Both the position numbers and the translations under genes were made by a program. A model generated the notes under the pieces. That model did not search any database and was not told the origin of the DNA. It worked only from the letters and a program-made list of their open reading frames with translations. A stretch of DNA of 64,000 bases from an uncultured Acidobacteriota bacterium (GTDB taxonomy: Bacteria; Acidobacteriota; Terriglobia; UBA7540): NCBI GenBank assembly GCA_963804995.1, contig CAWDSK010000006.1, positions 1,248,001 to 1,312,000 of the forward strand, given 5' to 3'. Shown piece after piece: positions 8,346-25,563 of the stretch (position 1 is its first letter; each line of letters opens with the position of its first letter).

Positions 8346-8777
8346 TCAGGGTTTCACCCCCACATCGTCGGCCCAATTGACCGTCTGCCTCACGTCGATA
8401 TGCTTCGAGCACTCTCGCAGGGTGTAGTCGTTCGTCACCAGCACGGCTCCCACCGCGGCAGCATGGGCGGCAATCAGCAGGTCCATGTTCGCCAGCGGCT
8501 TGCCGATTCGTTCCAGCGTGGCGCGGGCCTTCGCGTAGGCCCGCGCCGCGGCGGAGTCCCAGGGCAGGATGTCAATCTTGGATAGGAACAGCTCAACGGC
8601 AGCCTCCGTTGCCGCCGAGAGCTTCCCGCGGGCGAGGCCGAAGCGGATCTCCGCCTCGGTCAGCACCGAGATGCAGACGTCGTGATCGACGCTCACCCGT
8701 GCGAGCTTGCGGCGGGCGTGCCGGGACTGGCCCTTGACGATGTAGCTCACGGTGTTCGTATCGAGCAGGTAAATCAT
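8346..8777 (-). CDS. vapC: VapC PIN-domain toxin
   Basis: [28 protein letters not shown]. Confidence 0.92.
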
Positions 8778-9016
8778 ACCGTCTCTCGCTCCTGGGGCAG
8801 GCTCCGGTCGCGGTCGGCGAGAAAGTCCTCGGGCACGCCGGCACGGTCGAGCGCGGCGAACACTTCGCTCCAGTTCGCAGGCTTGCGGGACAGAATCACG
8901 TCTCCGGTGCGCGGGTTACGGTCGATGAAAACTTCCTTGGTGTCGAAGCGAAACGCGGCCGGCAGGCGCACCGCCTGGCTGCGGCCATTGGTAAAAACTT
9001 TGGCTTTTTGTCGCAC
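8774..9016 (-). CDS. vapB: VapB (AbrB/SpoVT-fold) antitoxin
   Basis: [22 protein letters not shown] start after GAGGAG; ATGA overlap with vapC. Confidence 0.9.
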
Positions 9017-9040
9017 GATCAATCCCTCCTCTCCGGTGAT

Positions 9041-9076
9041 ATATACCATGATATACAGCAAGGCTCTGAACGTCAA
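9041..9076 (-). promoter_or_regulatory. vapBC sigma-70 promoter with overlapping operator
   Basis: TTGACG-17bp-TATCAT on the minus strand; near-palindrome ATATACCATGATATAC overlaps the -10. Confidence 0.7.
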
Positions 9077-9173
9077 GTTCGTTGCGCGGACCGCCCCGAT
9101 CTGATCGGGGTCCGCGTCCATTCTCGCCATGATTTAACAAACGGTTGTAGTCAACGGGACCCCCATCAACCCC

Positions 9174-13675: not shown

Positions 13676-15415
13676 ATGGAAAACCGCGAGATCGCCGCCG
13701 TCTTTGAGGAAATTTCCAACCTGATGAAAATTCTTCAGGACGATCCCAAGTGGACCTTCAAAGCAGCCGCCTATGATCGCGCCGAAGCGGTCCATCGAAA
13801 GTTACCCCGAGCGCCTCGAAGACGTGGCTCGCGACCCGAATCGCAAACTTACGGACATCCCTGGAATTGGCGCGGACCTCGCCAAGAAAATCGCGGAGCT
13901 GGTTGAAACCGGCCAATCAAGTTATCACCAGGAGCAACTCGCGAAAGTTCCCCGCAGTCTGCTGGACTTGCTACAACTTCAGACCGTCGGCCCGCAGAAG
14001 GTGCGCTTGTTTCATCAAGGAGCTGAACGTCCAGAGCGTGGATGATCTGGAAGCCGCTGCCAAAGCCGGCCGCCTGCGCGATCTCGCCGGCATGAGCGAG
14101 AAGTCTGAGGAAAACATCCTGAAGGCTATCGAGGTCTTCCGCCGCGCCGCGGGCCGTTTTCGACTCGAACACAGCGTACGAGACCGCTGAAGTGCTTACC
14201 GCCTGGTTGCGCGATTTGAAAGCCGTTGAGGAGGTCACCCCTGCCGGCTCGTTGCGGCGCGGACGCGAAACGGTGGGCGATCTCGATCTCCTGGTCACCG
14301 GCCGCGATCATGCGCGCATTGCCGAGCACTTCGTGAAGTTCCCTGGCATAGCCGCCATCCTGGCCAAAGGCGAAGACAAGGTCAGCGTGAAGCTCAAGAA
14401 CGACCTGCAGGTTGACGTCCGGCTGCTGGAGCGTTCCGCCTACGGCGCCGCGATGCAATACTTTACCGGCTCGAAGGAGCACAACGTGGCGCTCCGTGAC
14501 CGCGCCAAACGCCGCGGGTGGAAGCTGAATGAATATGGCCTGTTAGAAGGTGACAAAGTTCTGGCCAGCCGCACGGAAGAGGAGATTTACGCCAAACTGG
14601 GCCTCGCGTGGATTCCGCCGGAACTGCGCGAGAACCTGGGCGAAATCGAAGCGGCGGAGAAAGGCGAGTTGCCGAAACTCGTCGAGCTGGGCGATATCAA
14701 GGGCGATCTGCAGATGCACACCACCGCCTCCGACGGTCACGCCAGCATCGAGGAGTATGGCCGAGCGCCGCAAAGCACCTCGGCTACCAATACATCCTCA
14801 TCACCGACCACTCGAAAGCCGTCACCGTCGCCAATGGCCTCGATGAGCAGCGCGCCGCGGAGCACATCCAGCGCATTCACGCCGCGCGCAAAAAAGTGAA
14901 GGGGATTGAAATCTGGGCTGGCTCCGAAGTCGATATCATGGGCGACGGGCGGCTGGATTATCCCGACGAACTCTTGAAGCAATTTGATATCGTGCTGGTG
15001 AGCGTGCACTCACGCATGACCATGCCCGCCGATGAAATGACCGCGCGCCTGCTGCGCGCCTTCGAAAACCCTTACGTGCGTATTCTCGGACATCCCACGG
15101 GCCGGCAGATTCTGCGCCGCGACCCGTTCCTGTTCGATCTTGAGAAGGTCTTCGCCGCCGCCAAGCAACGCGGGGTAATCCTGGAACTCAACGGCAATCC
15201 CGAACGGCTTAGACCTCTGTGACCGGCACGTCAAGCTGGCGCGCGACCGCGGCATGAAGATCATCATCTCGACCGACGCGCACGATCCCGAGCACTTCAA
15301 GCTGATGCGCTATGGGGTCGTGACCGCGCGCCGCGGCTGGATGGAAAAATCCGGCGTGCTCAATACCCTGCCCCCGGAAAAACTTCTTGCCAGCCTGCGA
15401 CCCCTGCCGCGCTGA
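13676..15415 (+). CDS. polX: DNA polymerase X with PHP domain; six +1 frameshifts (probably sequencing errors)
   Basis: MENREIA, IPGIG Hh[43 protein letters not shown]. Extra bases near 13784, 14010, 14171, 14757, 14766 and 15211. Confidence 0.9.
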
Positions 15416-15514
15416 CGGCCGCGCGCTCCCCTCGTGGATCAGGAGGGGGTCAGGGGGGCGAGCCGCAGCCGAAAGACTCTTAGGGAAAGTCCATTTGCCC
15501 GGAAGGAATCACGT

Positions 15515-16291
15515 CTAGTGGTGGTGTCGCACCAGAAAGCGACGAACGTCGGGCCAAAATTCTTTCATCTCGTAATTGAGGGCATCCCAACCAATTTGTG
15601 TTCCCCAAATAGTGATATTGCTACCGAGCGTCCGCGGGCCGGGATGATACGCATTGGAGATTGCTGCGGCCATGCCATTACCGAGAATTTCAGAGAAGTT
15701 GAACTGAGCCTGTCCCCAATCCGAGCGTGTAACCAAAACCCTTGTGGCGGCATACGCGGCACGGTAGAGGAACCCTCCTTTTCCCATCTGGTAGAAGCGC
15801 GGCTCTTGGTGCAGCGCAGCGGGTAACGCCGCGCTGGTCAAAAAGTTTCCCAAGGTGTTGTCGGCAAACGCTAATCCGTAACGTTTGGTGTAGCCCCTAA
15901 GCCCCTGCCCAAACGTGGGATTCGAATTGCCGGCCTGGTTGATGGCAGCTTCTACGCCGATGAAAGCAAATACCACAGGGTCGAAGGTGTCCCTAGCCAT
16001 CAACTTGAATTTTTGTTCCGCCGTGAGTGGAGGGAGCGATGAGGCATTTTCAATGGTCAAGTAGTTGGGCAGCGTCCAGAGGATTCGGTCGTTTTGTGGA
16101 ACTTGGGGATCCGGATCGGGCGGGCCTTGGGCGGCGCCGGAGTCATTCGCGAACTTGGTTGTGGCCGGAGCGAGTGCTTGCCCCGCCTCCTGTGCCCACA
16201 GTTCAGGAGACAGCCCCAGCATGCAAACGAAAAGGATGACCAGGACGGCGCCGCGCGGCCCAAGGGTTCGTTTAATCATCAGTCCAGCCAT
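15515..16291 (-). CDS. Secreted/outer-membrane hypothetical protein
   Basis: Signal peptide then LPNY..PLTAEQKF..GY.KRYG..HQEPRFY..EFWPD; coherent coding frame. Confidence 0.7.
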   Translation of the reverse strand: MAGLMIKRTLGPRGAVLVILFVCMLGLSPELWAQEAGQALAPATTKFANDSGAAQGPPDPDPQVPQNDRILWTLPNYLTIENASSLPPLTAEQKFKLMARDTFDPVVFAFIGVEAAINQAGNSNPTFGQGLRGYTKRYGLAFADNTLGNFLTSAALPAALHQEPRFYQMGKGGFLYRAAYAATRVLVTRSDWGQAQFNFSEILGNGMAAAISNAYHPGPRTLGSNITIWGTQIGWDALNYEMKEFWPDVRRFLVRHHH

Positions 16292-16658
16292 CTCCACTTC
16301 TACGCATCGGCGCACAAAGCCCCACTCCCTGGCTGATTCGTAATCATCTGGGTATACCCAAGCTCTCCGGACACAAACTAGCAACAGCATCTCGGCTAGT
16401 CTGTATAAAATTGAACAATGCGCAGCCATGGTGTCGCCACGGCTGAAAGTCCGCTGATCTCAATGGCCGGCGACCAACCCTGAGCGTGACATTCTCTCAT
16501 GCGCAATACCCCGGCCGCAAGTTCATGTCTTCAATCTGGATGGAGCACGCCACGAACCGTCCGGTACGTGACACACTACTACCGTCCCGGGTGGCACGCC
16601 GATGCATCGGGGTGTCCAAGGCTGACGCCTTCACACAGGCAGGAGTGCCTGTGCTACC

Positions 16659-16720
16659 GAAGCCAGAACCGGCCACGGATAGGACGCGGTGACAGAGATG
16701 TTGCCCGTGTTCGTGGGGCG
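16659..16720 (+). repeat. GNRA-hairpin repeat, copy 1
   Basis: GAAGCCAGAACCGGCCACGGATAGGACGCGGTGACA-GAGA-TGTTGCCCGTGTTCGTGGGGCG. Confidence 0.85.
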
Positions 16721-16757
16721 GACCCGATGCATCGGGTCGCCACCCGCGCCACGTTTG

Positions 16758-17093
16758 CTATGGGTTCTCGGGTGGAGGCACCAGTGGCGCGATGGACTGT
16801 ATTAAGGCGGGGAGATGGTTTTGGACGGTGTCCCATACCACGGCGAGATCCACGTGGTCATACTCATGGATCATCAGATTCCGCATGTTGATCATCGCCG
16901 CCCAGGGAAGGGCAGGCAGACTGGCTCGCGTTTCACGCGAGATTCGGCGGGCCGCCTCGCCAATGATTTCCAGTCGCCGGATCACCGCGTCCTGGCACTG
17001 AGTGTCCAGAATGAATTCTTCGTTGGTTTTGTAAGCGGCAGCCAGTTTGGCTGCTTCCAGGATGTCCAGCAGATAGGCAACGTCACGCGGCAT
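16758..17093 (-). CDS. hepT: HepT/DUF86 HEPN RNase toxin
   Basis: QDAVIRRLEIIGEA and the RX4HXY motif MRNLMIHEY. Confidence 0.9.
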   Translation of the reverse strand: MPRDVAYLLDILEAAKLAAAYKTNEEFILDTQCQDAVIRRLEIIGEAARRISRETRASLPALPWAAMINMRNLMIHEYDHVDLAVVWDTVQNHLPALIQSIAPLVPPPENP

Positions 17094-17394
17094 AGAAAAC
17101 CCGTGCCGAATCCAATATGGCCTTTCGACGGATGTAATTCCGGCTGCTTTCAAGGCCTCGCCGGCTTACCAGATCTACTTGGCGAGCAAAGATTTCCTGG
17201 AGTTCTTCCTCCATCTGGACCAGGTCAAACAGGCTGGGGTGGGAGTCCGGTGCAAAGGTCACGAGCACGTCCACGTCGCTCGCGGGGCCAAAGTCCGGCC
17301 GCAAGACCGAGCCGAAAAGGGCGAGTTCCGCAATTTTCCACTTCCGGCAGAATTCGCCCATTCGTGTCGGGTTTACCTCACTGAGAACGCTCAT
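17083..17394 (-). CDS. mntA: MNT nucleotidyltransferase antitoxin
   Basis: LFGSVLR.DF...SDVDVLV (GSx10DxD), VDLV; overlaps hepT. Confidence 0.9.
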   Translation of the reverse strand: MSVLSEVNPTRMGEFCRKWKIAELALFGSVLRPDFGPASDVDVLVTFAPDSHPSLFDLVQMEEELQEIFARQVDLVSRRGLESSRNYIRRKAILDSARVFYAA

Positions 17395-17548
17395 CCTCGC
17401 ACCCTCCAATTGCCCTACCCCAATAATATCACGCTACGCTCGCTTCTTAACGTTGTCAGCCAGGGGAGTTTGCCTGTTTCTTGTCACTGGTCCAGTTCCT
17501 AACCTCGTTCGTCAATCGGCAATCGAAAATCGTCAATCGAAAATTACT

Positions 17549-17612
17549 TGCGCGCCTACTTGACGGGAGAAACCCGGAAGCGGTGGAAAAAGCCCCCATG
17601 AACAAGTTGTGA
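17549..17612 (+). pseudogene. 3' remnant of an HTH antitoxin gene
   Basis: GCGCGCCTACTTGACGG..GAAACCCGGAAGCGGTGGAAAAAGCCCCCATGAACAAG is nearly identical to 19530-19599. Confidence 0.6.
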
Positions 17613-17685
17613 GGTGGTAGCACAGGCACTCATGCCTGTGGGCTCTGCATTACCCTTGGACACCCCGATACATCGGGGTGCTACG

Positions 17686-17760
17686 GAAGCCAGAACCGGC
17701 CACGGATGGGACGCGGTAGCGGAGCGGTAGCGGAGATGTTACCCGGGTCCGTGGGGCGCC
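17686..17760 (+). repeat. GNRA-hairpin repeat, copy 2
   Basis: Same repeat with an internal GCGGTAGCGGA duplication. Confidence 0.85.
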
Positions 17761-17771
17761 ACTCGCGGGCT

Positions 17772-18098
17772 TCACCCCCCCGCCTCACCTTCAAGAAGGC
17801 GTTTAACATCGCGCTTGCCATGCAGAATCCGAATGATGCGGAGGGTATCTTCGTCCAGAAGGTAATAAATCCGGATGGCCTCAAATCCCGCAACCGCCCA
17901 CGTGCGAAGATTTTGAAGCTGCGGGTTGCTGGAGCGATAGCGCGGACCCACCAAGGGGTGCTGCTGCAATGATTGGACAGTTCGCCGGACTGCGGTTCGG
18001 AAACGAACGGCAACTTCGGGAAGATTCAGGGTAACGAGGTAATAGCGAAACTGGCGCACTACATCGTCGCTGGCGGCTTGCCGATACGAAACCTTCAC
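17772..18098 (-). CDS. ParE/RelE-family toxin
   Basis: 108 aa; A.DD, HPLVG, IYYL..IIRILHGKRD. Confidence 0.85.
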   Translation of the reverse strand: MKVSYRQAASDDVVRQFRYYLVTLNLPEVAVRFRTAVRRTVQSLQQHPLVGPRYRSSNPQLQNLRTWAVAGFEAIRIYYLLDEDTLRIIRILHGKRDVKRLLEGEAGG

Positions 18099-18367
18099 GA
18101 ACGCGCGCCCGTCTTATGCTCGGCAAGCAGGGCGTTCGTTTGCGCGTTCACCGAACCCCAGAATTCGTCCTCCGCCAGTTCCTTCGATGCCAGCCCTTCC
18201 GCCAGCAGCGCGTCCAGTTCTTCCTCTGTCCCCGCAAAGCCCGGTACGGTGCGCTGTTCGACGGCGGCCAAGGCTGCATCCACGACTTCCTCAACCGACT
18301 CGTAGGCGCCCCGGCTTATGACGTCGTGCACCCGCCGCTCTTGCTCGGGTGTGAGCTGAATTGCCAT
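18095..18367 (-). CDS. ParD-like (RHH) antitoxin
   Basis: MAIQLTPEQE..GAYESVEEVVDAAL..LLAEGLAS; GTGA overlap with the toxin. Confidence 0.82.
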   Translation of the reverse strand: MAIQLTPEQERRVHDVISRGAYESVEEVVDAALAAVEQRTVPGFAGTEEELDALLAEGLASKELAEDEFWGSVNAQTNALLAEHKTGARS

Positions 18368-18460
18368 GCTGTCCCGCCTTTCACATTCGTCACCCTCAGG
18401 ATACGGCAAAAGACCCGGCGGGGCAACGACGTTGAGCACGACGTGGGTGGCAACGTTTGA

Positions 18461-18522
18461 GAAGCCCGAACCGGCCACCGGCAGGACGCGGCGACAGAGA
18501 TGTTGTCCATGTCCGTGGGGCG
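18461..18522 (+). repeat. GNRA-hairpin repeat, copy 3
   Basis: GAAGCCCGAACCGGCCACCGGCAGGACGCGGCGACA-GAGA-TGTTGTCCATGTCCGTGGGGCG. Confidence 0.85.
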
Positions 18523-18600
18523 CCCCGATGCATCGGGGCGCCACCCACGATTGCACCGACCGTGCCTGCCCACATTCATTTTGAGCGGCACCACTCCCAC

Positions 18601-18714
18601 TGTCATCCTGAGCCCGTAATTTGGGCGAAGGACCCCTGTAGTTCGCTCTTCCCAGTGCGCCGCGATAAACTGCCGAGGTCCTTCGGCCCGAAAGAACCGG
18701 GCCTCAGGATGACA
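18601..18714. repeat. TGTCATCCTGAG...CTCAGGATGACA REP-like hairpin
   Basis: Terminal inverted repeats visible directly. Confidence 0.7.
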
Positions 18715-18784
18715 GTGGGTTACGTGCGTGCTTTCCTTTTCGGGGGGTGGCGCCGATATCGCATTTTATGTTGGCGACCGTTAA

Positions 18785-18848
18785 GAAGCCAGAACCGGCC
18801 ACGGATGGGACGCGGCAACAGAGATGTTGCCCGCGTTCGTGGGGCGCC
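18785..18848 (+). repeat. GNRA-hairpin repeat, copy 4
   Basis: GAAGCCAGAACCGGCCACGGATGGGACGCGGCAACA-GAGA-TGTTGCCCGCGTTCGTGGGGCGCC. Confidence 0.85.
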
Positions 18849-18874
18849 GCGAGCTCACCTCTCACGCCTGAATG

Positions 18875-19139
18875 TCAGTATGTTGTGGAGGTTCGACGCT
18901 CAATGGCCGTCACCGCAACGCGGTGCTCTTCGGGATAGACAAAAATACGCCAGTCGCCGACGCGGCGGCGGAATCCCTCCCGGCCTCCCTGGAGTTTGCG
19001 CGCGTCGCTGATTCTCTTCCATGGCATCGACCGCAAGGCGGATGCGGGCCTGGTCGTTGGACGGGGTGCGTTTAAGAGATCTTTGCGCGGGCCCGGCGAG
19101 AACTACCAGCCACGGCTATTTCCCTTCTGCGGAGTTCAT
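18875..19139 (-). pseudogene. RelE-family toxin, inactivated (early TAG and internal frameshift)
   Basis: Manual translation: MNSAEGK*PWLVVLAGPAQRSLKR..IRLAVDAMEEN / DARKLQG..FRRRVGDWRIF..VTAIERRTSTTY. Confidence 0.75.
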
Positions 19140-19365
19140 CAAGGGTCACGTAATCACCGCGTGCGTACGCGGCTCTGCCGCGCCGGATAGCTCGCAGTTC
19201 GGCCGGCGTGGGAGTCTCCTCCGGGAATTGCCGAATGGCGATATAGGTGCGGAGCGCTTCCCGGACGAGCTCCGACCGGGTCCGATTCTCCGCCTGCATG
19301 GTTCGCTCGACCTGCTCCGCCATCGCGGGGGGAAGCGAAATGGTAAAGGTCTGCCGTGTTCTCAT
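19072..19365 (-). CDS. CopG/RHH antitoxin
   Basis: TISLPP..RTRSELVREALRTY..AIRRGRAAYARGDYVTLDEL; overlaps the RelE remnant. Confidence 0.85.
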   Translation of the reverse strand: MRTRQTFTISLPPAMAEQVERTMQAENRTRSELVREALRTYIAIRQFPEETPTPAELRAIRRGRAAYARGDYVTLDELRRREIAVAGSSRRARAKIS

Positions 19366-19410
19366 GGTTGTTACCTTGTAACACCTTGTCTTAGCAGCAT
19401 AACAGAGGAA

Positions 19411-19599
19411 ATGACCGTGTCAACGCCTATCTCACTGCGCGGGCTCCCTGAGGCATCGGGCCGCTATGCCGTAAGCCCGCGCTCGCTCCAGGAATGGGAA
19501 CAAGGGCGTCGGCGTCCGGAAAGCGCTGTGCGCGCCTATTTGACGGTGATTGATCGAAACCCGGAAGCGGTGGAAAAAGCCCTCATGAACAAGGCGTGA
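19411..19599 (+). pseudogene. Truncated Xre/HigA-like HTH antitoxin
   Basis: VSPRSLQEWEQGRRRPESAVRAYLTVIDRNPEAV; N-terminal helices appear to be missing. Confidence 0.6.
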
Positions 19600-19697
19600 G
19601 ATGCGAGGGCACCAGCCGTAAGAAAATGCCACGGTTAGGACTGCGCTGACTGCGGCTGCCCGCTTGCTATTTCGGGGAAAAGTGGTAGGGTGCAAGA

Positions 19698-20099
19698 ATG
19701 ATGTATTCGTGGCTCGATGTTGTTGGCCATGTCGCTGATGTTGTGACGATTCTCGGCGTACCTCTTCTTGCGGCGGGCACTTGGCAGCTTGTTAGAGAAA
19801 CTCGGCGAGAACGGGCAGAGCGCAAAGCATTGAAGATTGTGAGCCAAGACTGTCTTGAATTCTACGATCCTCGCCAGAAGGTGGGAGTGAACCTTGTGCC
19901 GTTAGAGAGAGTACTTGCCTTTCCTAGGCCCGGGGATCGCGTCTTGCTGCCCGGAGAAACCCGCGAAGGCAAGAATCTTGGTGGGGGCCAATACGAAGTA
20001 GAGAGCATCACCTTCACCTTTTTCGAAGCCCCGGAAGTGGATCAACCTTGTCCTGCGGTCCCTTCCAAGGTCATCGCTCGCGTCCGCAAGGTGAGTTGA
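19698..20099 (+). CDS. Hypothetical membrane-anchored protein
   Basis: N-terminal hydrophobic segment then a small beta-rich domain. Confidence 0.6.
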   Translation: MMYSWLDVVGHVADVVTILGVPLLAAGTWQLVRETRRERAERKALKIVSQDCLEFYDPRQKVGVNLVPLERVLAFPRPGDRVLLPGETREGKNLGGGQYEVESITFTFFEAPEVDQPCPAVPSKVIARVRKVS

Positions 20100-20127
20100 A
20101 CGAGCACAGGTACCGGCGGGCCGCAAT

Positions 20128-20679
20128 ATGAGAAGCTCCTATCTAGTTGATAGCATTCTCGAGGAGATCACAAAGGTCATCAATACCGGTGCCTCCCGCG
20201 TTCTCGTGTGCGCCCTTTACCGGGTGAGCTGTGAGGGTTGGTTAAAGGTTGAGCTACTGAAGGCGCTCACCGGGACGTTTGTAGGAAAATCGGACGTAGA
20301 GTTATTGCCAGAGATCGACGACATCGACCTGACTGTGAAGGCTGCTGAACAGCAAGTCTATATTGAACTGAAAACCTTTCCGACGAATTATGGCGGCGGG
20401 GGCAAGCCCATCACGAACTTTATCGACGGCGTGATCCACGATCTGTCCAAATTGGAATTGCGCTCCGGCGCGAATAGCGTTGGTCTGGTTGTCTGGCTCG
20501 CCTATCCTATTCCCGAACCCCCACCGCCGCCTTGGTTGAAGCATCTCGAAAGGGTTGAAGCCGCATCTGCAGGCACTTTGCGCATCGAGAGGCTCTTACT
20601 ATACGAGAACAAGTTCGCTCACATGTACATCATGCGAAGCAAACCGCACGACGGGGAGCCACGGTCAGCGCAGTCCTGA
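20128..20679 (+). CDS. Putative PD-(D/E)XK nuclease-fold protein
   Basis: E.WLKVEL helix, IDL strand and VYIELK motif in restriction-endonuclease-like order. Confidence 0.55.
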   Translation: MRSSYLVDSILEEITKVINTGASRVLVCALYRVSCEGWLKVELLKALTGTFVGKSDVELLPEIDDIDLTVKAAEQQVYIELKTFPTNYGGGGKPITNFIDGVIHDLSKLELRSGANSVGLVVWLAYPIPEPPPPPWLKHLERVEAASAGTLRIERLLLYENKFAHMYIMRSKPHDGEPRSAQS

Positions 20680-20813
20680 CCGTGGGCTTTTCTCTCTCCG
20701 AGCCGGATCCATATGAAGCAATTCCAGCAGGCCATGCCATTGCCAACAATGCAAGAATCCACGGTCAGCAACCCACTGACCTTGACTACCCGCTGAAAAG
20801 GGGGAGGACGCTC

Positions 20814-20993
20814 ATGTCCAAGAAAGCCAAAGGAAAACCGTGGTACTCGAAAGATGGAACGGTGCATCACGACAATTCTATGTGCGCCGAGGGAAAGAAG
20901 GTTTCACCTTCACAGCGACTTGAAGGAACCGGCCAAAAACCCCACTGCCCGGAGTGCGGAAAGCTGAATAACTTGCCTAGTTCGTTCCAATGA
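20814..20993 (+). CDS. Small putative zinc-binding protein (59 aa)
   Basis: GGAGG RBS; VHHDNSMC...CPEC. Confidence 0.6.
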   Translation: MSKKAKGKPWYSKDGTVHHDNSMCAEGKKVSPSQRLEGTGQKPHCPECGKLNNLPSSFQ

Positions 20994-21059
20994 CGGAGTG
21001 AGCGACGATGAGTACCGACGTGCTGGTCGTGCTGCAAAGACCAGCGAAGGAGTTGTGGA

Positions 21060-23427
21060 CTAAAACGATGACCGCTTGCCTCCGCAAAGTTCCACCGCCT
21101 TCTTGAACGCCTTTTTGAACTTCGGGGCAAACAATTCGTTCGTAAAAACGGTGTAGTCTGACGTGGGAATCGGCTCGTTGAGCTGCGATGAAGTGTGGAT
21201 TATCTTCTTAGCATAGTTCGTTGTGTGGAATCGTACGGAATATTGTCCAGCTACGGCCTCCTTCGAGGCACCCGTTCCAAGGTTTTCAACCTGAATATCC
21301 TCGGGGTCTATGTCTGTAAGAGAGAAGGATTCACGAATCCAGAAGCCCGGAGATGCTTTAGCACGGGTCTCAGTAATAGTCACAGCGCAACTATCACCGC
21401 CATTGCTCTCAAATGTGATGTTGGTTGTTCCGTTGCCTGACTCCTCTTCGGAAGCTCCCTTGAGCCATTGCAGTGTCTCGCTCAGTTTTGCGGGCACCGG
21501 AGGCTTTTCGTTGGGACCAAGCTCCGCCAGCGGTGCCTCGACCCTGGGCTTTTGTGCAGCGGACGCGATAGCGGCCGGGGGAGACTTCACTTGTTCTTGT
21601 GCAGGACTCAATCCAGACCCTGTCCGAATTAGCTCGTCGTTGGTAATGTCTAAGAAATCTGCTGTTTGCACCGTGTTTATTCCTCTCCAAGGTGAAAACA
21701 CGAGTTGATTCTGCTCTTGCCGCATAAGGTCATCTCCTATGCTCTTTCCTACCCTGTCGACCATATACGTGCAATCATGGTCAGTCATCGGTCGGCCAGG
21801 TTTGTACGGGCCGTCAAAAAAGGTTAAAGACTCACGGCACTTTGCGGTCATGCGGTGACCCTTGTGTTCAATAATGTAAGCGCCGTTTCTGAAGGCGGTG
21901 ACGTAGTAGGCATCGGCAAGTGTCGTTTCATTAGAATTGGTAAAATCAGGGCGCTGGCTGTGGTGCGAAAAATACCAGACCCCGACAACGATAACGATCA
22001 GCGCAGCCCCCGCGATGATGAAAAACTTGACCTTCTTGTGCGGCCTTGAAATCGTCTGGAACTGCAGAGGCTGGGCCGCCTCGGGCGGGCGCCTAAACCA
22101 ACGCACAAGAAAGAGGACCAGATAGATAAATCCCCACGCCAGAGATACGGGGACGAATGCGACAATTGCTGCCTCCATTCGCTCGCTGGGAAGCCTTCCG
22201 TCAAGAATGGCTTGTTTTAGTTGTTCACATTCGTTTTCACCCACCTGCTTTTCAAGGCAAGCCTGCCACATCACAAAGGCAAACCGCATATCGGCGTCGT
22301 TTGTGACCTTGAGAGTATAAATACCTGCACCGAGAATCCAGATGATTGAAGCGATAACGCCTATTTTTTTCCAACGAGACCAAAGCCATTTTCGTCGCGA
22401 GGGGTGAGCTGTTTCGGGGACGGCTTTAGCGGCAACTGTGTCGCCCACCGCGGTGGGAACAATTGTACTGGGCGCGGGCGTGACGGCGGTCTGTGGCTGT
22501 GACTTGGCGGCTTCCCGTTGCGCCTCGGGATGCGCAGCAAGCTGAGTACCGGCTTCGGTTGCCTGCGCGAACTCACGTGCGAATTCCAACACCGAGCCGT
22601 AACGCTGATTACGGTCTTTAGTGAGGGCTTTCATCACCGCGATTTCGAATTGGGGCAGGGCGGCGAAGTTCGATTTGACGGTGCGGAATGACGGCGGGTC
22701 TTCCTGCATGTGCATGCGCAGGTATCCGACCGGAGTATCGGAATGAAACGGCGTGCGGCCGGTGAGCATCTCGTACACCACCACGCCCAGCGAGTAGATG
22801 TCGGAGCGCGCGTCCAGTTCATCGCTCCTCATGCCCGACGCCTGCTCGAATGACATGTACGCGGGCGTGCCGAGCACCATTCCGGTCTGCGTGTGGGCGC
22901 CGGATTCGCGCAGCTTGGCAATGCCGAAATCGACGATTTTCACCTGAACGTTCGCCGGTGGGGATGTGGGCGCTAGAGCCTTCCAACTGTGCCGGCGGGG
23001 ACGCCGGCGCTACGGTCTGCGCGGGTGGGGACACCCGCGCTACAGACTCGTCGTCGGGGTACGTAAGGAAAATGTTATCGGGTTTGAGGTCGCGATGAAT
23101 GATGCCCAGCTTGTGCGCGGCGTTCAGTCCACGCGCCGCTTGCTGGAGAATTTCCGCAACCTCCGGCACGGGAAGCGCGCCACGCCGCGTGAGGGCCTGA
23201 CGGAGAGATTCGCCTTCGAGATACTCCATGGCGATATAGGGCGTGCCGTCATCGGCCTGGCCGGATTCGTGAATGGTGACGACATTCGCGTGATGAATGC
23301 GCCCCGTGGAAGCAGCTTCACTCTGAAAGCGCAGCAGAAATTCAGGGTCATCCAGCAGCTTGCGGCTCAGGACCTTGAGCGCTACGGGACGTTTGCCGAC
23401 TGCGATCTGCTCAGCGAGGAGGACCGC
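21060..23427 (-). pseudogene. Hanks-type Ser/Thr kinase with TM and extracellular modules; 5'-truncated and frameshifted near 22980
   Basis: VALK, HRDLKPDN, DFG, GTPAYMS, SDIYSLG. The Gly-rich loop and start are replaced by repeat DNA. Confidence 0.75.
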
Positions 23428-23433
23428 AAAGTT

Positions 23434-23716
23434 GAACCACCAAGTCACCAAGACACAAAGCAGGAGCTAGACAGGAGAAGTCCTCTAGCTAGGATTGTTA
23501 ACCGAGAGTTGGCTACTCGATGCTCAGCTTTCTTGGTGTCTTGGTGGTGGAAAGAAACCATGATCTGAGGCGCTTTCACCGACGGCAAAATGAACCACCA
23601 AGACACCAAGCCACAAAGAAGGAGTTACAAGGTGGAAGTCGGCAGGCCAGGACTGTTAGCCGGGAGTTGGCTACTCCACCCTCAGCTTTCTTGGTGTCTT
23701 GGTGCCTTGGTGGTGG
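23434..23716. repeat. Two tandem copies of an ACCACCAAG..CTTGGTGGT hairpin element
   Basis: Homologous units at about 23434-23550 and 23592-23716. Confidence 0.75.
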
Positions 23717-24074
23717 GGGCTTGAAAAACTGGTCAGCGGTATTTCAAGGGGTGATTTGTCCGATTTATTTCATATTTGGGCTACCGGTAGCCCAAACGCA
23801 TACATTGCCTATTGACATAGGCCAGTCGATGAAGCGCACAATAGAGGTGAGGAAGCGTAGCGCCATGATGCGTCCAGGCAGCCCTCGAAGAACCACGGAC
23901 CCCAAACACGGGGGTCTGCCATGCCCTACCGTGAAGGCTTGTAAACATTTCTCTGTGTCCTCTGCGTCCCGAAGAGCAGAGGTCACGGAGAAGCTCTGGG
24001 AGGAGCGCAGCGCCGTGCCAAGGCGCGGCTGAAGTTCTTCTGTTTTTCGGAACACAGCGCCCGAGGTTTGTGAA

Positions 24075-24328
24075 GATGTTCATGAAAATAAAGGGGGTTA
24101 GGCGTGAGAAGGGATTTTTTAGCAAAAACCTATCTAGTTGAAATAAAATGAGTTGCATTTACTGCGGGTAAGAAAAATAGCGCAAATAATTTCGATCAGG
24201 ATAGTCTGACGATGTGTATGAAAACAAAGGAAAACAAAAGCGACAATTTGGCAAGTCTAGCGATGTTGATGAAAACACGTAAGTTATGGCTGTTTTGCCA
24301 CGATGTTTATGAAAAGAAAGGTAGTTAG
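24075..24328 (+). repeat. Cluster of about five AT-rich GATGTNNATGAAAA(N)AAAG..GTTA motifs
   Basis: Copies near 24075, 24131 (degenerate), 24211, 24262 and 24302. Confidence 0.65.
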
Positions 24329-24665
24329 TGAAGAAAATGGGAAGAAAAATGGACCAAGCCGTCGCCATTCGCACCAAGCGTCTGCATCCAGCCGGGAACC
24401 ACCAAGCTCGCGGCGCTGCGTCCAAATGGGGAGACGAAAGAACCCCCATCGAGTAGAGGGCTGAAAGAATCGGGTGACGCGATGATCGGGGCGAAGCTGG
24501 AAGGTAGGAAGAGCGTTGGACTGGAGATAAAAAGCGGTGAGGCCCGCTCCCTAACCGACCCGCCGCAGCCCCTACCTCGGCCACCGGTTGTCACCGCGAG
24601 GACAAGCAACCGCGACGGCCCGGCAGACTCGCGGCGAGCGACCAACCCTACCGACCGAATGCCCC

Positions 24666-25260
24666 CCGCCCGTGACGCACTTCCCCAAATCGGTAATCGG
24701 TGGGTTGGCAACTCGGGATGAGGGAAATTGGGTGGCCTGCGGGACAACTCGTGCCGCATTTCGGCTCGTCGGCGATCACAAGATTAGGTCCATATGCATC
24801 GGTGGCTAAGAGACCCCTCACCCGTCGCGCTCCGGCTGGTGAAAACGCCGGCAGCGCGCCACCCTCTCCCCCTCGGAGAGGGCTATGAATTTTCACCTTG
24901 CGCTGATGACCGCTGGCCCGATGGCGCGATCTCCACCCCCCCCCCGCCGTGACGCACTGCCCCGCTTCGGTTATCGGCGGTGCCAGTTAAGAAAATGAAT
25001 CAAATGCTGACTTTGAAAATCGCCAATCACAAGTCGGAAAGCAGAAATGAGCGGATCACCGGATCGCCCGATCAACCGATCTCCCGATTGCCCGCCCCGC
25101 CCGTGACACACCTCCCCGCTTCGGTCATCGGCAGGCTGGCGTCAGAGGATGAGGTCACAAAGACTGGCCGAGGGCGCGACGCAATGAGGATCAAATAGTG
25201 ACACCCAGCCTGACCGACTCCGCCCCCGCCGTGACGCACTCCCCCGCTTCGGTTATCGGC
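24666..25260 (+). repeat. Four ~36 bp direct repeats encoding P[PA]VTHxPxSVIG
   Basis: Copies near 24666, 24943, 25097 and 25225. Confidence 0.75.
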
Positions 25261-25563
25261 AAGTTTATGACGGAACCTGAGCCCAATTCCGCCGATCGGA
25301 GGCGGGCAGCAAATCGCTGGCCTGGCAATTCGACCGCCCGATTGCCGCCACAGGGGCCGTTACCCCGCAAATCAAACTGCTCAAACATCCCACCGCAGGC
25401 AGATTCCAAAATCGCGCCTGGGGGTGTTACACTCGCGACCGGCTGCGACGATCTGCGGGGATTCTAACTTCCACCGTCGCGGTACCGCAGGGCGCAGTAG
25501 CAAATGGTCGGCGTTGTGCGAATGGGAACGCGGCGTGGGCAGCAGGAGAGAGGGAGAGTAGAC

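Follow-up and report, generated by a model that had tools for sequence, protein, structure and literature searches.

What separates the toxin–antitoxin (TA) modules that stand one behind another in this stretch of DNA, and does the separator act on their transcripts or on their movement? The window, that is, the whole 64,000-nucleotide stretch that was analysed, contains four copies of a short repeat beside minus-strand toxin genes. A preliminary description saw in them a folded RNA or a recombination site of an integron-like array. It also named a match to a known REP as evidence against both readings, and the repeat is indeed part of an element of the REP type for which a cognate RAYT transposase exists. 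Its 62 nt form the conserved spacer of a REPIN, a dimer of GTRG-REPs in which two inverted hairpins are arranged around approximately 70 nt. Among soil and peat Acidobacteria, one family has this element between TA modules that are lined up in same-direction arrays.

The four repeats start, as described before, at 16659, 17686, 18461 and 18785, all on one strand (family D4, 78–100% to the reference). The distance from core end to toxin stop codon is 29–38 bp for HepT and the RelE-like gene and 13 bp for ParE, and Pfam bears out the minus-strand HepT, MNT, ParE and RHH genes beside them. This genome holds 25 copies with E values of 2e-10 to 2e-19, far beyond chance. The repeat is real, but it is not a whole unit: it is only the middle of a 105–175 bp element bounded by GTRG-REP hairpins (Table 1).

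Table 1. Features of the array and its right flank in the window
Feature	Position	Strand	Content	Basis
Element 1	16591..16748	+	GTGG-REP, linker, inverted REP (CTAC foot), 62-nt spacer 16659-16720, right REP terminating CCACC-CGCG	sequence and boundary analyses
Cassette K6	16758..17391	-	MNT antitoxin 17083-17391 and HepT toxin 16758-17093; adjoins the element in relatives too, at 89-93%	Pfam NTP_transf_2 E 9e-17 (MNT), HepT-like E 1e-24 (HepT)
K5 antitoxin tail	17549..17612	+	3' remnant of a HigA/MqsA-like antitoxin gene, ahead of element 2; 100 truncated vs 9 full copies of the gene	Pfam HTH/MqsA on the full gene
Element 2	17617..17767	+	REP doublet, spacer 17686-17758 with 11-nt internal duplication, right hairpin deleted, end foot retained	
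Cassette K7	17772..18367	-	ORF 18095-18367, small and antitoxin-like, a putative antitoxin by position (no Pfam match); ParE toxin 17772-18098	Pfam ParE_toxin E 2e-10 (toxin)
Element 3	18447..18549	+	left foot alone, spacer 18461-18522, right REP intact	
Non-coding unit	18550..18746	n/a	324-bp period; palindrome of a different repeat family at 18601-18714; recurs at four further genome sites	
Element 4	18747..18851	+	single left GTGG-REP, ACCGTTAA, spacer 18785-18846, right hairpin deleted	
Cassette K3	18875..19365	-	RHH antitoxin 19072-19365 and frameshift-broken RelE/ParE-like toxin 18875-19117	Pfam RHH_1 E 4e-10; intact toxin orthologue, ParE_toxin E 8e-6
Array end	19462..19660	+	second K5 antitoxin tail, then CCACGG-type REP (other family)	
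Ser/Thr kinase gene	21060..23451	-	5'-truncated, REP-interrupted, converges on the array	Pfam Pkinase

The kinase gene is a recurrent neighbour of these arrays. All 15 kinase matches sampled at 75–83% identity lack the element; they were picked from matches not already known beside an array and so provide no control. A syntenic empty site for the window array was not found in 12 relatives, because polX leads into other genes there and the flanks lie on different contigs. When contigs from relatives are placed on the window, loose ends pile up at 16659 and 16720; these contigs carry no expression or strain-level joint information, those of the one RNA run among them show neither strand nor ends, and the sequencing runs contain at most 0.18 of the words. 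No coding signal was found in the spacer (0/6 frames significant, best p 0.09). Its alignment to the CCACGG-type REP (median score 23 vs 17, 95th percentile 24) gives just a hint of an origin from that family. With GC skew too weak, no leading or lagging strand bias emerged (5 vs 7 of 12 entries), and none of 49 reverse transcriptase matches lies beside an array by coordinate.

Passages of PMC6006769 define REPs by a short palindrome with GTAG or GTGG immediately on its 5' side, and this tetranucleotide foot is present here. Two inverted REPs with their feet outside and a spacer of 20–100 bp occur in other genera, as the single-copy form, and in element 4 of the window, whose single left REP before the spacer is the ancestral REPIN layout. 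Many array copies depart from the plain form through an extra doublet or a deleted arm. The plain single REPINs of other genera are mostly without TA neighbours. Conservation of the spacer reaches 92% per column, far above that of the arms (pairwise, 0.79–0.89 vs 0.35–0.61). The right end is sharp to the base: 46 of 62 independent flanks start exactly after CCACC-CGCG, and conservation of 87–90% gives way to 37% or less one base further on. No such sharpness is seen at the left end (41–83%), and the breakpoints of many cassettes are scattered within a K5 tail.

The sharp right end is also the end seen at the loci of a particular transposase. All 14 RAYT loci of one clade, at 62–100% identity to the RAYT of locus L142, have the gene flanked by the element's right-hairpin REP, which occurs at 0 of 16 more distant RAYT loci. 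The L142 protein, encoded at 1444–1992 on the minus strand of that locus, scores over the cut-off of NF047646 and has both the HUH and Y motifs, and a HigBA-like pair lies next to its gene between the same REPs. At one metagenomic locus, represented by two contigs (L215 and L246), the whole element lies 75 bp from a 74%-identical RAYT. The flanks of the RAYT loci differ in each genome. The element is non-autonomous and tied to this Terriglobia clade of HUH tyrosine transposases. With the L142 RAYT as the query, the cognate clade was not found in this genome (best match 53%, without these REPs), nor in G005 and G002, two genomes with long arrays.

Enrichment next to TA genes was named as a check in the preliminary description and stands far above that of other REP families: a toxin gene is found within 700 bp of 15 of the 25 copies. 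For other REPs the figure is 41 of 601, and for random points it is 2.5%. Other REP families are mildly enriched (7% vs 2.5%), one of them at 21% of its loci. Where these REP arms occur without the spacer, just 3–8% are TA-linked. Across the genome, only 10 of 110 toxin matches have an element nearby.

In relatives, the arrays contain up to 10 element copies on the same strand, and neighbouring copies are co-oriented in 95/95 pairs. TA modules make up 62 of 91 internal units and 62 of the 71 over 600 bp. Individual cassettes turn up again in other genomes, next to near-random neighbours: none of the 36 ordered cassette pairs is repeated, and among 268 copies, cargo is shared upstream alone in 299 pairs, downstream alone in 311 and on both sides in 5. 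Cassette proteins are 88–99% identical across genera. The full-length relatives of the window cassettes keep one orientation and nearly the same element joint in 20 of 24 cases, in different species, and 4 are free of the element. Four close genomes compared at a single orthologous site have different copy numbers and share none of the DNA beyond the last element, and nine more distant genomes lack the element. A unit is tandemly duplicated at L102, and L300 shows an arm-to-arm collapse. These comparisons of cargo and sites are between species, and repeat misassembly may affect fragmented genomes. Synteny is poor throughout this genus.

The exchange falls between the left and right REP arms. 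The right hairpin type tracks the downstream cargo (0.57 vs 0.38, 0/1000 permutations) and the left arm the upstream cargo (0.50–0.70 vs 0.35–0.58), with weaker left-arm linkage in the larger set (0.34 vs 0.29, p 0.08). Spacer columns track neither neighbour, and no linkage step is seen along the spacer. The integron-like array proposed earlier is thus upheld in its architecture, with single modules in shuffled order set apart by sites that all face one way; neither the folded GNRA hairpin as the recombination site nor one fixed crossover is supported.

The best explanation, to which we give a probability of approximately one half, is that the REPIN belongs to a RAYT clade that makes the joints, that recombination in the spacer shuffles the units and that addictive TA modules survive deletion. 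This draws together the observed anatomy, cognate RAYT, sharp right end, same-strand arrays, TA-dominated cargo, shuffled neighbours and exchange between the arms. By cutting at the GTGG foot and transferring the strand, the RAYT would join the element's right end to new DNA, and a module trapped between two element copies would become a unit. Passages of PMC3333891 report that TnpA-REP cleaves in linkers and exchanges and recombines strands in vitro. Recombination within the roughly 90% identical spacer and arms could then duplicate and delete units and exchange them among arrays and genomes. The host's own machinery, RecA or replication slippage, would be the likeliest agent, with no RAYT needed in the genome. 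Because every unit between direct repeats would be prone to deletion, self-promoted addictive TA modules would persist and the arrays would fill with TA pairs, on which the REPIN would hitchhike. PMC13108822 describes TA cassettes that kill cells under high cassette excision. Several points weigh against this explanation. The roles of the RAYT and of host recombination are ones that we infer, and this genome, G005 and G002 are without the cognate RAYT although arrays are present. The spacer-less arms have no TA link, so a deletion filter alone does not explain the association, and both the many toxin matches away from the element and the element-free cassette relatives count against it. The loose left end, scattered K5-tail breakpoints and weakened left-arm linkage are also adverse, and the explanation does not account for the recurrent kinase gene.

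Of the other readings, action on toxin mRNAs by a structured antisense RNA or a terminator has become highly improbable. This reading was rejected because there is no covariation and no fixed place relative to toxin ends. The plus strand does fold better than the minus strand in 24 of 25 genomic copies, but this edge stems from its G/T richness: the median folding z is −0.9 (+) and 0.0 (−), which does not indicate a selected plus-strand fold. The supposedly invariant GAGA loop is GAGA in 111 of 142 copies and GNRA in 127, and the 3' arm given as CCGCGTYC was recovered in one of the four window copies, copy 2 having a G·G mismatch besides its 11-nt duplication. Stem pair 28–50 is unpaired in 43/100 copies. 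Changes on both sides of the stem occupy 2 of 1300 cells, the covariation is reached by 34 of 500 shuffles, and the RNAalifold consensus (−1.5 kcal/mol) has 0/7 pairs compensated. A scan of 15300–21000 against Rfam gave one chance match (E 3.4) and no family, and no T-run lies 3' of the hairpin. Three window copies abut toxin stops, and the claim that the repeats face toxin 3' ends holds in the window; it is not general, as 35 TA units run in the element's direction and 27 in the opposite one, and units starting behind the element outnumber those ending at it. It is also improbable, to a slightly lesser degree, that the spacer is the folded site of a site-specific recombinase and the REP arms are incidental. 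The flat, high conservation of the spacer, its retention where arms are deleted and a TA link that follows the spacer rather than the arms would suit such a site. Nevertheless, no fixed crossover was found, in that no spacer column is linked to either neighbour (gene conversion could mask one), and no fold appears to be selected. The attC consensus consists of R'' (RYYYAAC) and R' (GTTRRRY) boxes, which were found in 0 of 268 copies on either strand at a 50–150 nt span. TIGR02249 gave 12 matches in this genome (92% complete), none over the cut-off for an integron integrase (best 78 of 265 bits), and no recombinase is among the ORFs recurring beside 29 loci. Modules of the pdif type are enclosed by pairs of 28-bp XerC/XerD sites; no such dyad was noticed in the element consensus.

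Two further readings concern mobility itself. The arrays may, more tentatively, be a RAYT-driven analogue of the integron, in which the transposase captures modules and excises and re-inserts whole units as single-stranded circles through cuts at several spacer-internal linker sites. It would act in trans, or in pulses that follow the gain and loss of the RAYT gene. The spacer of such an integrase-free, RAYT-powered cassette system could be a dedicated single-strand exchange site through which the transposase stockpiles and reorders TA modules of at least 30 types and hands them on from one species to another, in arrays beside a polymorphic kinase-FGE receptor gene. Its conservation far above the arms, the right end common to the RAYT loci, the HigBA-like pair at L142, linker cutting in vitro and the near-identical cassette proteins of different genera are all consistent with this. 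It is opposed by the missing cognate RAYT in this genome (G000), G005 and G002, by linkage without a step along the spacer and by the intact RAYT found beside just one of the element-bearing loci examined. That the cassettes do not move at all, and that the REPIN inserts repeatedly by itself into gaps between TA modules of TA-collecting islands, is unlikely and already weakened. Single REPINs without TA, the element-free relatives, the mild enrichment of other REP families and the generally poor synteny would fit; the joints and orientations held across species, the uniform co-orientation of neighbours and a right hairpin type that moves with the downstream cargo would not.

The benefit of REP/RAYT systems to the host is an open question, as is the build-up of dozens of TA modules in a genome. 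In these arrays, units the size of genes are delimited by a REPIN and pass from array to array and from species to species, and what they chiefly carry is TA pairs. The element and its cognate RAYT offer a defined substrate for asking whether RAYTs move genes, and the arrays are a natural test of addiction selecting what survives between direct repeats. They double as a catalogue of neighbouring small ORFs that are likely unrecognised antitoxins or toxins. A RAYT-powered cassette system, if true, would be an HUH counterpart of the integron and would give REP/RAYT a concrete host-level job.

Neighbouring DNA is also captured by IS200/IS605 and IS91/ISCR elements, whereas the units here are without a transposase and form arrays instead of single composite elements. 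A sharp end made of a tetranucleotide plus hairpin and one loose end are common to both (for IS608, passages of PMC8266576). REPIN/RAYT systems and BIMEs are alike in the GTAG/GTGG foot before a palindrome, the inverted dimer around a spacer, the cognate Y1 transposase gene with these REPs on its flanks, and tandem amplification with mosaic variants (PMC3733652, with GTAG head-head REP dimers; PMC3116915, on REPINs of P. fluorescens SBW25; PMC3333891, on TnpA-REP of E. coli). They differ in that the copies here are stacked on one strand with gene modules between them, have a strong TA bias and have RAYT loci whose flanks change with the genome. In SBW25, according to passages of PMC3116915, REPIN doublets are random in extragenic space and the spacer is less conserved than the REPs; here, the copies are clustered and TA-linked, and the spacer is the more conserved part. 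Sedentary chromosomal integrons and CALINs with TA cassettes, as portrayed in PMC13108822, likewise have direct-repeat sites between single modules in shuffled order, and there too each TA cassette brings its own promoter and can face either way. The arrays described here have no attC boxes, IntI or single crossover, and TA modules are the bulk of their cargo, not a minority guarding other cassettes.

The repeat arrays are a REPIN/RAYT-type system that works like a cassette array; they are neither an integron nor a structured RNA. The four same-orientation repeat copies of the preliminary description were found again in the window, and an iterated profile search gave 25 copies in the genome of 7.55 Mb. 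Every copy of this repeat, the spacer, is flanked by REP hairpins whose foot reads GTAG or GTGG. The simplest layout, found in element 4 of the window and, elsewhere, in the single copies of other genera, consists of a foot, a REP, ACCGTTAA, the 62-nt spacer, an inverted REP and a foot. This is a head-to-head REP dimer and hence a REPIN, as outlined in excerpts of PMC3116915 and PMC3733652. In array copies, a REP doublet often takes the place of the left REP, and either arm can carry a deletion. The genome contains 1256 foot-plus-hairpin matches from many families and six RAYT (REP-associated transposase) genes above the NF047646 cut-off. In it, more than 20 GTAG/GTGG REP families stand alongside at least six RAYT genes, several RAYTs being flanked by their own family. 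Spacer positions 14–36 resemble, with weak statistical support, a decayed, inverted CCACGG-type REP, which is the other REP family commonest near toxin genes.

Features of the window and of other loci (L numbers)
Feature	Position	Description
Spacer copies	window, starts 16659, 17686, 18461, 18785	all on one strand
MNT-HepT pair		set apart by spacer copies in the window (Pfam)
ParE module		set apart by spacer copies in the window (Pfam)
324-bp non-coding unit		set apart by spacer copies in the window
RHH-RelE-like module		toxin frameshifted; set apart by spacer copies in the window (Pfam)
VapBC-type pair (PIN + MazE-like)	window 8346-9130	REPs of other families on the flanks, without spacer
polX-PHP gene	window 13773-15415	broken across several frames
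3' tail of one HigA-like antitoxin	window 17549-17612, 19462-19599	now a repeat in its own right
Converging kinase sub-clade	window 21060-23451; L100-L109, L111, L113, L114, L116, L117	
Non-coding mosaic	window 23400-25350	large; several repeat families
DDE transposase genes	L002:3331-5217, L003:7409-9295, L001:3914-5488, L004:7096-8670	adjoin or interrupt element arrays of the window's genome
Metallo-beta-lactamase-fold protein (~400 aa)	L103:7414-8586, L105, L117	last cargo of three arrays
Gp49/HTH (HigBA-like) pair	L142:543-1183	directly next to the RAYT gene, between the same REPs
Cognate RAYT genes	L153-L163, L178-L180	62-100% identical; flanks different in every genome; ends sharp, REP-defined

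The hairpin proposed for the repeat is able to form, yet its structure is not conserved. The folding z-scores of the 25 genomic copies have medians of -0.9 (+ strand) and 0.0 (- strand), and the consensus fold of the spacers reaches -1.5 kcal/mol. All 13 stem pairs are kept in just 34 of 142 ungapped copies, and the loop, described as invariant, reads GAGA in 111 of them. Covariation did not bear out the stem either. Among 100 spacers drawn randomly from 237 distinct ones, double-sided changes occurred in 2/1300 cells (spacers x stem pairs), the covariation score was equalled by 34/500 shuffles, and pair 28-50 was unpaired in 43 spacers. An Rfam search returned zero matches, and the coding signal sought in the spacer was absent. 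The repeat is not a structured RNA, and any RNA role for it is highly improbable.

The spacer copies are enriched near toxin genes. Six Pfam searches of the window's genome gave 110 toxin-family matches. Such a match lies within 700 bp of 15/25 spacer copies (8/12 loci), compared with 41/601 copies of other abundant REPs, 3–8% for arm types of the element where no spacer accompanies them and 2.5% of random points. The linkage accompanies the spacer, not the arms. The element is near just 10 of the 110 toxin matches and another REP near 30; one other REP family has 21% of its loci near a toxin.

Arrays were compared in 20 regions of relatives, picked for multiple matches, and nine regions of the window's genome; these comparisons are between species, and the fragmented assemblies may mis-join repeats. 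Up to 10 element copies stand in a row, mostly 0.5–1.6 kb apart, and neighbouring copies are co-oriented in 95/95 pairs. Many units are recurrent, 72/126 grouping into 20 clusters found repeatedly across arrays. When cargo was annotated with Pfam (one representative per cluster plus singletons, ORFs pre-selected by codon score), TA modules made up 62/91 internal units and 62/71 of those longer than 600 bp. Their 30 types include VapBC, ParDE/RelBE, MazEF, HepT-MNT, HicAB, MqsRA, BrnT, DUF433-DUF5615 and Gp49 types, and their direction relative to the element is the same in 35 and opposite in 27. The remaining internal units are Uma2 (3; a repeated cargo, in three arrays), IS (3) and short units that are non-coding or lack annotation (23). 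Many modules adjoin, at scattered breakpoints, a 3' tail that comes from a single HigA-like cassette, and across the loci examined this antitoxin is present as 100 truncated copies versus nine full genes.

The order of the units is shuffled. No two of the 36 ordered pairs formed by labelled cassettes are alike. Among 268 copies, pairs sharing cargo do so upstream only in 299 cases, downstream only in 311 and on both sides in 5, versus about 4 expected under random pairing. When the genus was searched with the three modules of the window, 24 full-length relatives were recovered. Of these, 20 have a spacer no more than 330 bp away on one or both sides, always oriented as in the window, and four are free of it. 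Two adjacencies of the window were seen again, once each, in relatives: MNT-HepT with ParE in G042, and ParE with the RHH-RelE-like module in G021. In another genus, an orthologous site holds 1–2 copies in each of four close genomes (flank gene 96–100%), and the DNA behind the last copy differs; nine more distant genomes have zero copies within the 0.9–1.5 kb examined. In the window, the region behind polX-PHP has been rearranged, since the conserved block that follows this gene in relatives is here on other contigs. Parts of the non-coding mosaic are present 15–30 times in the genome and directly follow three other element loci. The genome also has 49 reverse transcriptase matches, 38 of them in 528-aa frames.

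A Ser/Thr kinase gene converges on, or lies inside, the array in 17/29 regions. The array-side kinase mostly has a C-terminal FGE-sulfatase domain and is often 5'-truncated or REP-interrupted. The C-terminal part of this sub-clade is variable, with WD40 and PEGA in neighbours; FGE domains are typical DGR targets. Among the 33 best genus-wide matches to the N-terminal part, 21 have an element within ~8 kb, and the other 12 are without an element, on short contigs, or unchecked. The kinase stands between two elements at L116, and a kinase fragment is joined to the right end of an element at L399.

The element ends indicate where units are exchanged. Of 116 copies with an intact right end, 62 have independent flanks, and in 46 of these the flank starts exactly after CCACC-CGCG; conservation is 87–90% and at most 37% one base on. 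The left end is looser (41–83%). The right hairpin type is associated with downstream cargo (0.57 against 0.38, 0/1000 permutations, 268 copies), and the left arm with upstream cargo (0.50–0.70 against 0.35–0.58 in 126 copies; weaker when scored by type in 268, p 0.08); in the 268 copies, no spacer column was linked to either cargo. Since the left arm follows the upstream unit, the right hairpin the downstream unit and the spacer columns neither, units are exchanged between the arms, with no single fixed crossover visible. Two events are compatible with recombination between copies: at L102 a unit is duplicated in tandem, and at L300 one arm has collapsed onto another. Independent insertion of the REPINs is a quite unlikely account. 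The integron-like TA array proposed earlier stands as regards co-oriented, shuffled, TA-rich units, but not as an integron: attC boxes are absent from the 268 copies, and no integron integrase exceeds the cut-off in the window's genome. A recombinase of another, unknown kind is very unlikely.

Element matches are found in 21/24 genomes of the genus, 41/132 of the family (7/33 genera) and 0/16 outside it; database pattern matches fall in records labelled Acidobacteriota or Terriglobia. The cognate RAYT, at locus L142 of the relative G013, has HUH and catalytic Tyr motifs and is flanked by a hairpin identical in type to the element's right-end hairpin. Among 30 RAYT loci returned by a genus search, the right-end REP is present at 14/14 with 62–100% identity to this protein and at 0/16 with 43–60%. 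The ends of the 14 cognate loci coincide with those of the element, and their flanks differ. In one metagenomic locus, on two contigs, a RAYT of 74% identity starts ~75 bp from a whole element. In the window's genome, the best match to the L142 RAYT (53%) is without the right-end REP, as are the best matches in G005 and G002. That the cassette system is driven wholly by RAYT is doubtful, though the least improbable of the alternatives. Our preferred reading, to which we give a probability of about 0.5 as a whole, combines RAYT-made joints, host recombination and TA persistence, and builds on what is directly established: the anatomy of the element, a RAYT clade cognate to it, its sharp end, and arrays that are shuffled and biased towards TA modules. 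RAYT strand transfer would create new joints at the foot. Excerpts of PMC3333891 describe TnpA-REP cleavage 5' or 3' of the REP, within linkers and also further away, as well as strand exchange, and propose that flanking genes are sequestered; according to part of PMC8266576, cleavage can be directed by the GTGG foot. Units would be moved by host recombination in the spacer, and TA modules may persist since cells that lose them die, as an analogy with PMC13108822 suggests.

The REP/RAYT and integron-TA literature searched, with most subscription journals lying outside it, yielded no description of TA cassette arrays bounded by REPINs. The different flanks and sharp, REP-defined ends of the cognate RAYT loci suggest that the REPtron of this clade, the RAYT gene with its flanking REPs, moves as a unit. 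In some E. coli strains, a TA operon is present in place of the REPtron (as excerpted from PMC6006769), and the unit movement suggested here differs from the description of the E. coli REPtron.
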